Of a stretch of 64,000 nucleotides of DNA, positions 1-5,046 are shown piece by piece. Under the pieces are notes generated by a model that worked only from the letters and a program-made list of their open reading frames with translations, was not told the origin of the DNA and did not search any database. Within the stretch, counting starts at the first letter, position 1. Every line of letters starts with the position of its first letter. Origin of the DNA: Ophelia neglecta (taxonomy: Eukaryota); the NCBI GenBank assembly GCA_965285935.1, contig OZ260664.1, positions 31,744,001 through 31,808,000 of the forward strand, given 5' to 3'. Both the position numbers and the translations under genes were made by a program.

Positions 1-252
1 GGTGATTCTGAAGCCATGGCGCAGGCCCTGGAGGATGAACTCGGCATCCGGGTCATTGGAGGCAGTAAGTTCCTCCTCCCAGGCGGGTAGGGAGGCAGCG
101 ATGGACCCTTTAGGCGGTATCTGAGGAAGATTGGTTGGTGGGGGAAGTGGTTGTGAGTCCACGGGCGAGGCTGGTTGGTGGTGGCGTTTGTCGTCATCAG
201 GGCAGGTCGGCAGGGTAGGGGTGTCCAGTGCTAGTTTGCGTTTTTTGAGTGG
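1..252 (-). CDS. pol: N-terminal part of RT/RNase H ORF2 (partial, no ATG, -1 frame relative to gag)
   Basis: Manual translation of 84 open codons after TGA at 255-253: PLKKRKLALDTP...LPAWEEELTASNDPDAEFILQGLRHGFRIT. W-x-DPD-x-FIL-x-G-x-R-x-GF-x-I is the block that precedes RT in DIRS/Ngaro elements. Not listed in the ORF track. Confidence 0.8.
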
Positions 253-1685
253 TCACTGGCTGGGTGGTCGGTGGCGAAGCACGTGGAACACGCATGTGCA
301 TAGCGACACTGGGCAAAGTGACACTGGCCTCGGTTGTAATTCATGCACAATTCTCTGCCAGTTTTTGGGTCAATGGTACCAGTCCGTCTGGGTAGTGGGG
401 CTTTCTTACTGATCATGTTGACCGTTGGGGCCGTGGGCTGCTGGCGGGCCATCAGGTGGACACTGGAGAGGTGTTGAACATCCACCCCCCAGGGGAAACC
501 CAGTTCTGCCTGTAGGTGACGATATTCTCTGTCATAGAGGAGTACTGACTCCCACTCAAAGCGTAGTGCCAGCTGGTGTACTTTTACCGTATATGCCAGG
601 TATGTGGAGATCTGGGGGAGGGGAAGGGACCTCTCTTCCAATAGACGGTTTAATATCCGAGTGTTGGCGATCCCCCACTGATGGGGACTTATTTTATGGA
701 GCTGTGGCTTGCGCGGTCCTGTTTCGAGTACAATCTTACCCCCTGTGCCTGGGACCTCGACGCGTTCCCTTTCGACTAGGAGACCGGGCACGAAATCCAC
801 AATTTCAAGGGCAGCTTTACTCTTACCCTGCGGGTTGAGCAGGATGGCCGGGTCGTGGTAGTCCAAGTGTGCGGGCGGCCGAAGGAGCGTAGGCCTAGCT
901 GGTTCTGAGGCTTGATTGGTGTGGGGTGGCTGTACCAAGAGTGCTTGGAGAGCCTCATGGAGAGGGGCTGATTGTTGTGGAGCGTTAAGCTGTATGGGAT
1001 AATCCGGGGTGGCAGGCTGTCCCTTGGCAGGAAGAGGTGGCTGGGATGACATCCGAGGTGCCATCGGTTGGCCTGCTGGGGTGCCAATAGGAGGTTGGAC
1101 AAGGTCTGTTTTGGCAGCTATCCTACGCAGGATGAGTACCTGGCGAAAAGGGGGTGGCTTGTTACCTTCTCGGGAGGCCAGGAGTTCCTCTAAACTGTCA
1201 GGGTCCAGGTCTGCCAGGTGTTCCGGGTGAGTGAAGCCCTCCGAGTTGAGCCACTCTATAATATCTGCCGATAGACCTTGATCTGTCAGGGTGTTGGTGG
1301 CGAGGGGCAAGGTTGGGGGCTTGTCACTAGAAGGGCGGCCGGTCTTCCTTGTACGGGCCCTGGCGTCTGACTGTGGTGTTTCTGTGATTGGGTTCAGCCT
1401 GATGTCCTTGTTACGGGGGGGTTCCAGTGTAGCTGCTGTGGACTGCAGTGCTGGATCGTGGGTGGTAGTTGGTTGTCCCGACATGTGTGGTGTGTGCTGA
1501 GTGGCCTGGGGTGGCATGTGCTGAAGCCACTGGTTAAGCTGACCTGGCGTTGCTGGAGTATGCTGATACGTCTGCTGGCCATGAGGTGCCTGCATTGGCT
1601 CTTGTGTAGAGTTCCAGGCAGCTAGAGGTCCGGCTGGGCCAAGTATTGCCAAGTCTAAGTTGAACTGGTCTGTCTGAAAAGCCAT
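231..1685 (-). CDS. gag: Gag-like ORF1 protein of DIRS/Ngaro-type retrotransposon, 484 aa
   Basis: The track ORF 231..1733 uses GTG; the first ATG at 1685 has a strong Kozak context (GCACCATGG). Q/P-rich N-terminus, SAM-like segment (LSADIIEWLNSEGF...QVLILRRIA), conserved gag block YLAYTVKVHQLALRFEWESVLLYDREYRHLQAELGFPWG, C-terminal CMNYNRGQCHFAQCRYAHACSTC zinc finger. Confidence 0.85.
   Translation of the reverse strand: MAFQTDQFNLDLAILGPAGPLAAWNSTQEPMQAPHGQQTYQHTPATPGQLNQWLQHMPPQATQHTPHMSGQPTTTHDPALQSTAATLEPPRNKDIRLNPITETPQSDARARTRKTGRPSSDKPPTLPLATNTLTDQGLSADIIEWLNSEGFTHPEHLADLDPDSLEELLASREGNKPPPFRQVLILRRIAAKTDLVQPPIGTPAGQPMAPRMSSQPPLPAKGQPATPDYPIQLNAPQQSAPLHEALQALLVQPPHTNQASEPARPTLLRPPAHLDYHDPAILLNPQGKSKAALEIVDFVPGLLVERERVEVPGTGGKIVLETGPRKPQLHKISPHQWGIANTRILNRLLEERSLPLPQISTYLAYTVKVHQLALRFEWESVLLYDREYRHLQAELGFPWGVDVQHLSSVHLMARQQPTAPTVNMISKKAPLPRRTGTIDPKTGRELCMNYNRGQCHFAQCRYAHACSTCFATDHPASDHSKNAN
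240..246 (-). other. Candidate -1 programmed ribosomal frameshift slippery heptamer A_AAA_AAC
   Basis: The gag frame reads TCA AAA AAC GCA AAC TAG; the -1 frame reads AAA AAA CGC AAA CTA, which is the RT frame. Confidence 0.7.
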
Positions 1686-1740
1686 GGTGCAGAGGAGGCA
1701 GAGACAAAACCTGCTGACGCGTCCCGCGGACACTAAAGGA

Positions 1741-1775
1741 AGACTGAAGGCCCATGGTATGGGGTTGCCTTATAT
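1741..1775 (-). promoter_or_regulatory. Internal Pol II core promoter of the retrotransposon (TATA + Inr)
   Basis: Minus-strand TATAAG starts at 1774 and Inr TCAGTC has its +1 A at 1745 (29-bp spacing), 60 nt upstream of the gag ATG. Confidence 0.55.
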
Positions 1776-4423
1776 CCCTGAGCTTGACACTTACAGTACA
1801 CAAACTGCACCCCTAATGGCAATTGAAGTCTGGTCTGGTACAGATGCTGGGGCCAGGCCCCAGGCCTGTCCAAGCGAAGGGGGAGAGACTGGGTGGCACA
1901 CAGTCTTCCTGATTGCACTCCAGGCCCTCCGAAAACACAAGGGCTGGTAGACACCAGTGCCACCGGTGTCTGCAGTGAACGACACCTAACCAGGTGTGAA
2001 ATAAAACAACAAGATATGAGCTGGCAGAGTCATCCATGCTTACCCTATTTTTAACACAACCTCAGTACAGAGGTTACATTTATACTGAAGAGGATTGCTT
2101 GAGGATCATAGCTTCATTAGTCCTATACTGCCGACTTGTTTTGCTAAAAGACAAATCCCAGAAAACGACTGTCTTGTGGAGAAGGAGTCAGCTTGAGACT
2201 TACTCCTGTGGAGAAGAAGCATTGTACTTGTCTTTGGAGTTCTATCTATTTTGTATGGTTAGCCTTGTCCTCTGGCCCCATAATGAGTTGGTGAGGTCAC
2301 TGAGCCACAGAACAGCCAATTCATCAGACAGGGATCTGGCAATAGCTTGATCACAGAAAAAAGCAGTAGATGTTTCCTTGCAAGTTTCAATACTGTCAAG
2401 CATTGGTATGGACTTATCTTATGGTTGCATGGGCAGACATATAGATGTGTGTGCATTCTCTAACAATAAATCTAGTAAATAAATGTCTGGGTTGTCTTCT
2501 TGGTAAGGCACCAGTTGCTCTGCTGGCCAATACCAGCCAGTAATTTCACTTGTTAGGCAACAGTCTGAAGTTGATTCTCAGATATTATGAATCATGGCAG
2601 TGAATCAGATCGTTTTTTTGTCCCATCAGTTAGAGTATTGGGAGACATGATTTAATTCCTCATGTTCTTGCCAGGCCATTTTTAACTAAATAGTCTTTGC
2701 GCTGTAGCCTTGTACGGGGTTTTCCTCCCTAAACATGTATCATACCTTCCTATCTGCTATTTGAAGCCCAAAACCTGATTCTTACTTAAAGCAGGCTGAT
2801 GCCTCCTATTTCTGATCCTTTACCAAGGCCACAAAAGTCAAAGTTTCATTGATTTTGCCATAAATAACTTGAACTTGCTCCACCTATAAACAGCAGGCTA
2901 GAGATTCACATGACCAGAGCCTTTTGGATCATTTTCGTATGGGTAGCTGGTGTGTCTCTATACTTTTAACTACATGGAGGCTAGAATCTTAATGGTTTTT
3001 TAATGTATTCATGCATCCATTCTGGACATTCAGAGATCAGATATTGATACCAGTGTTTATGTAAGAATTTTTGTAAACTTTTCGCCTGCCTTGTTAGATT
3101 TTCTCAGTTGTGTCTGATGCAGACTACAGTTTTAAATGACCTCTGGCTTACTTACAATGACAACATGTGTGCTGCTGACAGGGTGTTTTGATGTTGACTG
3201 AGTCCTATAGCACAATGTCTTACAGCTGTCCGCGAGCTGTATGTCCTTATAGGCTCTGAATAGACCAGCATAAAGTGTAGCTTGTTCCTCATCAGGCGGC
3301 AGTAGTCCGTGTAACCCTTGCACTTTGCCTCAAGCTCCCATAGATACCTATAGATACCCCTGAGCTAACAGTAATAGCACTTGTTATAAGGACTGTGCAA
3401 AAAGTGTTAATCTCTTCTGATGTTTCATTGTTAAAATTTTGTAGTTTAGATTTTACAGCGCTGGGTGTAAGGCCAACCGGTTTTGGGCAGGGTCTGTAGT
3501 GTACTGGAAACAAACTATACTTTGGTTTTGGCCTCATCGAACTGAAATTGATAAAGACTTTCAGTTCTGTCTGATGATTTTAAAAACACAAAAAGGAAAT
3601 TCCATATTCCAACACATTTAAAATAAGTGACATTCTCTATGAGTGTGAGGAAACAGTCTGCGGCAGGTTTGTTGGTAGATTAATAAACTTGGAGTGTTCC
3701 TAAGAAAACACATTAAAAGTACAAATGTATGTTTTAAGATGCTATAAATCTTGAGTAAAGCACAGGCTGATGGCTCTGCCCACAATGTGTGCTGCTCATT
3801 TGGTAGCTAAAAGCCTCTCATAAGGTGTTGTTTAATGCGGAAATATAGCACTAATTATGAAGGCAATTTGTTAGTCTGCCCATTATACAGGAGCTTCAAT
3901 CCATCATTTTGCTTTGAGAACCTGTCATTATTTGGACATCTTAGGAAAGGAGTTTTATGAAAGAAAAGACAGTGAGAGTCATCTCCTTCTTGTTTACTTT
4001 GAATTTATCTTTGCTGCAATTCAGCAAACACAATCATGTAGTGGCTTTTGCAAATTAAGCCAAACTTCTTGATATGAAAGCAATATCACAAGTAGATAAG
4101 TCAATGAATGATGTTATTGAATTGTATTTACCTACTGAACAGAACAAAGCAGGTCAGATCTTACTGTAAATTAGTTGAGAATATTGACAGGGACACTCTG
4201 TCAGTAATAATAGCCTTTGGGGAAATGTAATCAATAACCAGGCTGCTTGGGAAGGTAAAGTCACTTCTGGGTGTCACTTGTACCTTATTTTCTGGTTTTC
4301 TGGCAGTCATTAGTAGGCCTAAGATGACTGATGTGAATTTTTTTTATTTATGTCCTTGTGCACACTAAGTTAATATCTGGAGATTTGTTCTACTTCTACA
4401 ATATGCGAGGTGCTGACTTGTTC

Positions 4424-4558
4424 AGCAGTAATACTGGCTGGTATATCAGTAGTACTGGCTGGTTTATCAGTTGTACGGCGGGTTTATGAGTAGTACGGCG
4501 GGTTTATGAGTAGTACTGACTGGTTTATCAGTACTGGTTTATCAGTAATACTGGCTGG
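4424..4558. repeat. Minisatellite, 20-21 bp unit (agtagtactggctggtttatc), ~6 copies
   Basis: Direct tandem units at 4447, 4468, 4488, 4508. Confidence 0.9.
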
Positions 4559-5046
4559 CTCCTTGGCCCTCCAACCCTCCTTGGCTCTCCTGCACTCCTA
4601 GGCTCTCTTGCACTCCTTGGCTCTCCTGCACTCCTTGGCTCTCCTGCACTCCTCGGCTCTCCTGCCCTCCCCAGTTCTGCCCTCATGGGGTCTCCTCTGC
4701 TCTCCTGCCCTCTTCGGCTCTTTTGCCTTCGGCTCTCCTGACATCTTTGGCTCTCCTGCCCACCTTGGCTCTCCCGCACTCCTTGGCTCTCCTTCCCTCC
4801 TCGGCTCTCCTGCCCTCCCCAGTTCTGCCCTCATGGGGTCTCCTCGGCTCTACTGCCCTCTTCGGCTCTCCTGCCCTAGCCTATCCTGACATCCTTGGCT
4901 AATCTGCCCTCCTGCACTCCTCGGCTCTCCTGCCCTCCTCGGCTCTCCTGCCCTCCCCAGTTCTGCCCTCCTGCACTCCTCGGCTCTCCTGCCCTCCTTG
5001 ACGTTCCTACCCTCCTTGGCTCTCCTGCCCTCCCCGACTCTCCTGT
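4559..5046. repeat. Minisatellite, 18-bp unit (ggctctcctgcactcctt) with an interspersed ccccagttctgccctc variant
   Basis: Period 18 (4583, 4601 ...). Source of the spurious AGEPRS/LLGSPA ORFs. Confidence 0.95.

Follow-up and report, generated by a model that had tools for sequence, protein, structure and literature searches.

Ngaro retrotransposons are described, in the available portions of PMC3783388 and PMC9210276, as elements with split direct repeats in the layout A1...B1-A2-B2. The same two papers and PMC3266345, in the portions available, give overlaps between the frames and no slippery site, and in this the element considered here is different. For one of the overlaps a mechanism was proposed: Poulter and Butler (2015), as cited in the available part of PMC13003380, considered it probable that programmed frameshifting within the pol/YR overlap gives access to the tyrosine recombinase (YR) of Ngaro; in the element described below, by contrast, the frameshift signal is situated at gag/pol and the YR frame is accompanied by splice signals. 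No expression mechanism is given in the available portions of PMC3266345, PMC3783388, PMC6681497, PMC9210276, PMC7192593, PMC9341512, PMC2632668, PMC4157794 and PMC8547959, and the frameshifting review PMC5009743 does not mention DIRS elements in its available part. Neither a gag/pol slippery site nor a gag-YR splice was found for Ngaro in the literature searched; Goodwin and Poulter (2004), Poulter and Goodwin (2005) and Poulter and Butler (2015) lay outside it and may already note them. An earlier note on this DNA had called expression of such overlapping ORFs poorly characterised; for gag/pol we indeed found no proposal, while for pol/YR frameshifting had already been suggested.

Efficient −1 sites usually come with a stimulator. 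MMTV and HTLV use the heptamer A_AAA_AAC, and the −1/−2 frameshifting of arteriviruses is stimulated by a protein, with a C-rich motif ∼10 nt downstream. According to the available part of PMC5009743, few heptamers are more shift-prone on mammalian ribosomes than A_AAA_AAC and G_GGA_AAC.

We analyzed a window of 64 kb (the whole stretch of Ophelia neglecta DNA under study), one end of which carries a retrotransposon continuing beyond it; all features of the element given below in window coordinates are on the minus strand. The comparison of its gag/pol junction with those of its relatives indicates that a real, conserved −1 frameshift signal giving a Gag-RT fusion is very probably present.

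Structure and class of the element

The element is Ngaro-type, not DIRS1-like, a class that is read from its split direct repeats and not from a placement of its RT among named Ngaro references (our RT tree holds own-genome copies only, 39 of 91 loci having passed its filter). It is 4.55 kb long with the layout A1-gag-pol-B1-A2-B2, the A repeats being 389 bp at 99.5% identity and the B repeats 210 bp at 100%. The left repeat A1 (389 bp; 1694..2082), found by self-comparison with its ends fixed by the empty-site joint, forms the element’s 5′-end; the second copy, A2, is found between B1 and B2, beyond the window. The layout A1...B1-A2-B2 was also observed in other families with resolved ends. 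Self-comparison yielded direct repeats only, with neither inverted terminal repeats nor an internal complementary region of the DIRS1 kind, and Pfam showed no methyltransferase domain in the 604-aa pol frame up to E 1. From the initial label ‘DIRS/Ngaro-type’ the Ngaro part is to be kept and the DIRS1-like part dropped. The order of gag, RT/RNase H and a putative YR, the split direct repeats, the lack of a methyltransferase match and the lack of target duplication are shared with Ngaro as described in the available portions of PMC3783388, PMC3266345 and PMC9210276.

Compared with a full Ngaro element, most of YR is absent: only the beginning of this frame is left in the window copy. In sister families the YR frames have 340–360 aa and match PF00589 weakly, under the cut-off (E 0.006–0.011). 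An empty allele exists in the same sample, as a contig joins both flanks, omitting 4550 bases, with 3 letters that fit either side (L009:4029-8580); the insertion is, therefore, recent and made no target duplication. Presumably, a YR-depleted copy was moved by YR from another copy. Elsewhere in the window, positions 4426-5045 hold a compound tandem repeat with periods 18, 21, 59-61 and 148 bp, unrelated to the Ngaro element.

Frames at the gag/pol junction

The gag-like ORF (231..1685; 484 aa, ATG at 1685, TAG at 233-231) has 44 homologues elsewhere and carries near its end, at residues 443-464, a CCCH zinc finger (294..359; Pfam PF00642, E 1e-4). The pol frame, −1 relative to gag, is closed on the upstream side by TGA (253..255) and runs over 1..252 and then beyond the window to C7:31742441, 604 codons in total, with Pfam matches to RT (PF00078, E 7e-17) and RNase H (PF17917, E 4e-4). 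The overlap of the two frames is 22 nt, gag stop included. The conserved W..DPD block of pol begins from window position 81, and the first pol ATG is codon 184, far beyond this N-terminal block and, counted from the start of the Pfam RT match (137-309), 47 residues inside it. On the minus strand gag ends as TCA AAA AAC GCA AAC TAG, where the slippery heptamer A_AAA_AAC (240..246), in X_XXY_YYZ phase as seen from frame reading and from comparison with families and outside hosts, is two codons ahead of TAG. The earlier note was exact on the opening of pol after TGA, the 22-nt overlap, the absence of ATG over 84 visible codons and the in-phase heptamer.

The junction is read through, with no gap, in an independent contig from the sequenced sample, and it is identical in a 99.8% twin (4554 bp compared) on another chromosome; the −1 offset is, therefore, no assembly slip in the A run.

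A stem of 6 bp between CCAGUG (259-254) and CACUGG (225..230; +10 to +15 past the heptamer) was also proposed. Both halves exist and do pair when the RNA is folded; still, the stem is weak (z −1.59, 16 of 200 shuffles being equally stable) and not common to the families, the upstream half being absent, as compared by eye, from all 16 remaining ones. As the stem surrounds the heptamer, it would be opened by the ribosome.

The junction resembles retroviral gag-pro sites of the MMTV type (PMC5009743, available part) in heptamer class and phase, in its location just past the Gag zinc finger and in the predicted Gag-enzyme fusion. Unlike in retroviruses, there is no protease and no DDE integrase, and in the 12 nearer families (see below) the gag stop appears as early as 0–4 codons past the heptamer.

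Conservation of the heptamer in the genome

Searches of the genome gave 151 RT matches and 92 gag matches, from which we examined the best 30 of each as well as 60 further RT matches hand-picked for open frames. Linkage at 85% nucleotide identity gave 17 families, six gag loci with no pol match being excluded from the count. Sixteen families were chosen by RT identity of at least 40%, not by junction; the 17th (27% RT identity) was added once its junction had been seen.

A strict in-phase X_XXY_YYZ heptamer was found inside the overlap in all 17 families (one representative each), and pol was −1 to gag in all of them. The heptamer was A_AAA_AAC in 15 families, C_CCA_AAC in one and C_CCU_UUA in one. 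At ordinary gag codons in-phase strict heptamers are rare (16 of 6498, 0.25%); the number of families expected by chance is 0.81 of 17 from the gag background, or ∼2.85 if codons are redrawn with amino acids kept. The other two phases showed a heptamer in 0 and 1 of the 17 families. The very small joint probabilities that follow overstate independence, since the families share ancestry and are not 17 independent draws. Bases flanking the heptamer do not align between families. In the C_CCA_AAC and C_CCU_UUA families the amino acids differ and the slippery pattern is retained; these variants, together with C_CCA_AAA from outside hosts, would fit re-pairing of tRNAs and not a protein constraint. 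Thirteen of the 17 pol frames have no ATG ahead of the conserved block, and in the other four an in-frame upstream ATG appears at non-matching places.

Counted per locus, the heptamer was present in 41 of 43 cases and absent from two; it was lost in the 93% and 83% copies of the window element’s own family, both otherwise decayed. Gag and pol were brought into one frame by one extra base at 3 of 43 loci (L020, L036 and L077; 1 of 3, 1 of 4 and 1 of 2 copies of their families), the base being gained in the A run in one copy and in nearby single-base runs in two others. The expectation that AAAAAAC would be kept in phase across copies and relatives was borne out at the level of families, all 17 having an in-phase heptamer, and failed for two decayed copies of the own family; copies with gag and RT in one frame, regarded in the earlier note as evidence against frameshifting, do exist at these three loci. 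Both the losses and the one-frame copies look like decay or read error; nevertheless, they count against the frameshift reading. As a separate observation, L013 and L014 (C8) belong to a 9.9-kb stretch with a decayed relative, duplicated at 99.3% with a distance of ∼39 kb.

Relatives in other hosts and distant YR elements

Among 10 outside relatives (nine loci on MAG contigs, L190–L198, and a metagenome copy, L135) eight have an in-phase heptamer. On the MAG contigs seven were identified by script (five A_AAA_AAC and two C_CCA_AAA), and the eighth has the heptamer with gag broken; at L192 and in the decayed metagenome copy L135 no heptamer was found. In three outside loci the heptamer is tightly enclosed, with the TGA bounding pol immediately ahead of it and the gag TAG immediately behind; with an overlap of 10 nt, the heptamer is the sole place where the frame could be changed. 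The MAGs within which these Ngaro-type contigs are filed are bacterial (Sedimenticola, Thiodiazotropha and Flammeovirgaceae); the contigs are probably host DNA contamination.

Considering outside Gag homologues, we saw Lys-Asn in the last 14 residues of 20 out of 44, versus ∼2% expected. Four more of the 44 end with Gly-Asn-x-x-x-His, and three outside pol proteins show Gly-Lys-Arg at the corresponding place; both, as read from proteins with the DNA unseen, are compatible with G_GGA_AAC. The hosts of named pol homologues are hemichordates and a coral; no relatives were found among viral contigs. Of five loci from the metagenome scan, one was L135, a decayed relative; the other four, being too distant or spurious, allowed no judgement.

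Fifty more distant loci of the genome (RT identity 22–33%; L081–L130) have a different organization. In 33 of them pol is in +1, mostly with long overlaps and no shared heptamer; the others were called −1 with no heptamer (8), had no upstream ORF (7) or no match (2). As distant YR elements are mostly +1 and have no such heptamer, the −1 mechanism at gag/pol is not general to the order DIRS. In the distant +1 elements the gag overlap is ∼95–450 nt in intact copies and the conserved start, LPTP, lies close to where gag stops; several have no ATG ahead of LPTP.

RNA downstream of the heptamer

Contrary to retroviral sites, no pseudoknot or hairpin 5–9 nt downstream was seen in 15 of the 17 families. 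In the window element the 45 and 80 nt past the heptamer are no more stable than shuffled sequences (z −0.2 and +1.8), and a simple search for an H-type pseudoknot was negative for 15 of 17 families; fold and search both confirm the remark, made from inspection of the window element, that no obvious pseudoknot is present downstream. The mean z over families was −0.03 and +0.11 for the 45 and 80 nt, respectively. No shared partner for a long-range duplex was found; one family of 12 clearly beat its 8 shuffles. Only two distant families, L132 and L133, fall below z −2 (z −5.1 and −2.3), both yielding a pseudoknot candidate as well. Unlike other families, these two have the classic kind of signal, with a candidate hairpin or pseudoknot situated a few nt past the heptamer.

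What is seen instead in the window element is a C-rich, G-poor linker (85..224), unstructured by folds and family comparison, which codes for the proline-rich pol start. The first 45 nt after the heptamer contain 40–58% C in the 12 nearer families. The window’s CACUGG also has counterparts: CACURG, or a one-letter variant, is present at +10 to +15 in 9 of 12 nearer families, even in cases in which it does not contain the gag stop. The motif may stimulate the shift; alternatively, it may be vestigial and maintained by a leucine of pol. The unstructured C-rich 3′ region and the short motif at fixed spacing are reminiscent of arteriviruses; this is resemblance only, as our motif, CACURG, can be accounted for in part by the gag stop and the pol leucine and has no known binding protein. 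One could also guess, by analogy, that the C/U-rich tract beside the gag stop shields the RNA from nonsense-mediated decay; such protection by a C/U-rich tract near a stop has been described for another case (PMC5009743, available part).

Expression of the YR frame

The frame of YR relative to pol is −1, +1, 0 or detached, depending on the family, and the first YR ATG is often deep inside, which does not fit a single frameshift and fits a splice. Family conservation points to a predicted phase-1 splice donor in gag (821..829; GT at 826-825, after codon 286). At this one aligned place of gag, 11 of 12 nearer families carry G|GURAG or G|GUAGG, both donor-like, and the codon used there is GGT in every case; GGT accounts for 23% of Gly codons. 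The other families checked have phase-1 donor-like sites further upstream in gag. The candidate acceptor at C7:31742507 precedes the YR frame, at a distance of 2320 nt downstream of the donor. A pyrimidine tract with YAG in phase 1 is present at the conserved YR start in all 13 families with a usable YR match and in all seven outside loci that have YR; inspection by eye added two more families. In leave-one-out ranking the pre-YR acceptor took rank 1–2 in 9 of 13 families, rank 9–24 in the others and rank 1 in the window element; this score is partly circular, having been trained on the same pre-YR sites.

Since the conserved gag donor matches a strong acceptor before YR and not before RT, YR probably comes from a spliced message in which the first ∼286 codons of gag are fused to the YR frame, and not from a second frameshift. 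In this respect YR would be like retroviral env, a third ORF reached by splicing. Already-spliced genomic copies were not seen among the best 30 YR loci, nor were spliced fusion proteins among 20 YR and 120 listed pol homologues. The arrangement suggests that the published proposal of frameshifting into YR points to the wrong junction for this clade.

Alternative explanations of pol expression

The same donor might serve pol, if joined to a YAG at the gag end in such a way that the gag ATG is in frame with RT. Its conservation in 11 of 12 nearer families, its phase, which fits an AG at the position of the gag stop, the use of TAG as the gag stop in 11 of these 12 families and the presence in all 12 of an AG in pol-compatible phase at most 15 nt from the heptamer all speak for this possibility. 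Upstream of the gag-end AGs, however, the sequence is A-rich and lacks a pyrimidine tract; among ∼200 sites these AGs rank 71–207 in 8 of the 11 families having one and 10–21 in the other three (178 of 196 in the window element), and the donor has the better partner before YR described above (rank 1–2 in 9 of 13 families). A fusion with the front of gag only was not seen among 120 listed outside pol proteins, a weak argument because most were called on DNA. As splicing also leaves the phase-locked heptamer unexplained, we consider it a very improbable route to RT.

The heptamer would be needless, too, if pol started alone, whether from a non-AUG codon, by re-initiation past the end of gag or from a shortened transcript. 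The window element’s family and one relative do have CUG in good context just past the gag stop, and upstream ATGs exist in 4 of 17 families; yet CUA, which is not a usual start codon, takes this place in 7 of 9 families with the CACURG motif, and the ATGs are at places that do not match. An independent start is, in our estimate, slightly less probable still. Very little weight can be given to slippage of RNA polymerase or RT in the A run, with an added base making some transcripts one-frame. A genomic copy with an A gained in the run, and two others with a base gained in nearby runs, speak for such slippage; but slippage ignores codon phase, while in all 15 families having the run of 6–7 A it ends in the same gag phase, and the variants C_CCA_AAC, C_CCU_UUA and C_CCA_AAA are not long runs.

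Proposed mechanism and implications

We return to −1 frameshifting. With a startless pol frame and an in-phase slippery site found in nearly all distant relatives, RT is likely to be made by a backward slip of one base. The Gag-RT fusion proposed in the earlier note finds its support in cross-family comparison: the in-phase heptamer is kept, its variants obey re-pairing and 13 of 17 pol frames lack an ATG ahead of the conserved block. A minority of ribosomes would slip back one base on A_AAA_AAC, probably through tandem re-pairing of Lys and Asn tRNAs, entering the ATG-less pol frame and producing a Gag-RT-RNase H fusion, while most would terminate two codons later at the gag UAG. Given no stable 3′ structure, the rate could be low but sufficient from a bare heptamer, or else could be helped by UAG, by CACURG or by a protein on the C-rich tract. 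One RNA would then yield Gag, Gag-Pol and, when spliced, Gag(N)-YR.

Neither the class of mechanism nor the element family is new in itself; what would be new, with uncertain priority, is that they occur together, apparently with no 3′ structure and with a probable gag-YR splice alongside. For YR retrotransposons with overlapping, often ATG-less frames, exact and testable coordinates are given here for both proposed expression steps. Dozens of naturally diverged −1 sites, mostly with no usual RNA structure, make a panel for studying other stimulators in animal cells. The organization also accounts for gene callers truncating or mis-joining Ngaro proteins. Only tentatively, and with clearly less confidence than in the frameshift signal itself, one could speculate that a widespread animal Ngaro clade combines a structure-free −1 frameshift, stimulated by the motif, the adjacent stop or a bound protein, with a Gag-to-recombinase splice. 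If true, such elements would have arrived at a retrovirus-like programme by means of a novel type of frameshift stimulator.
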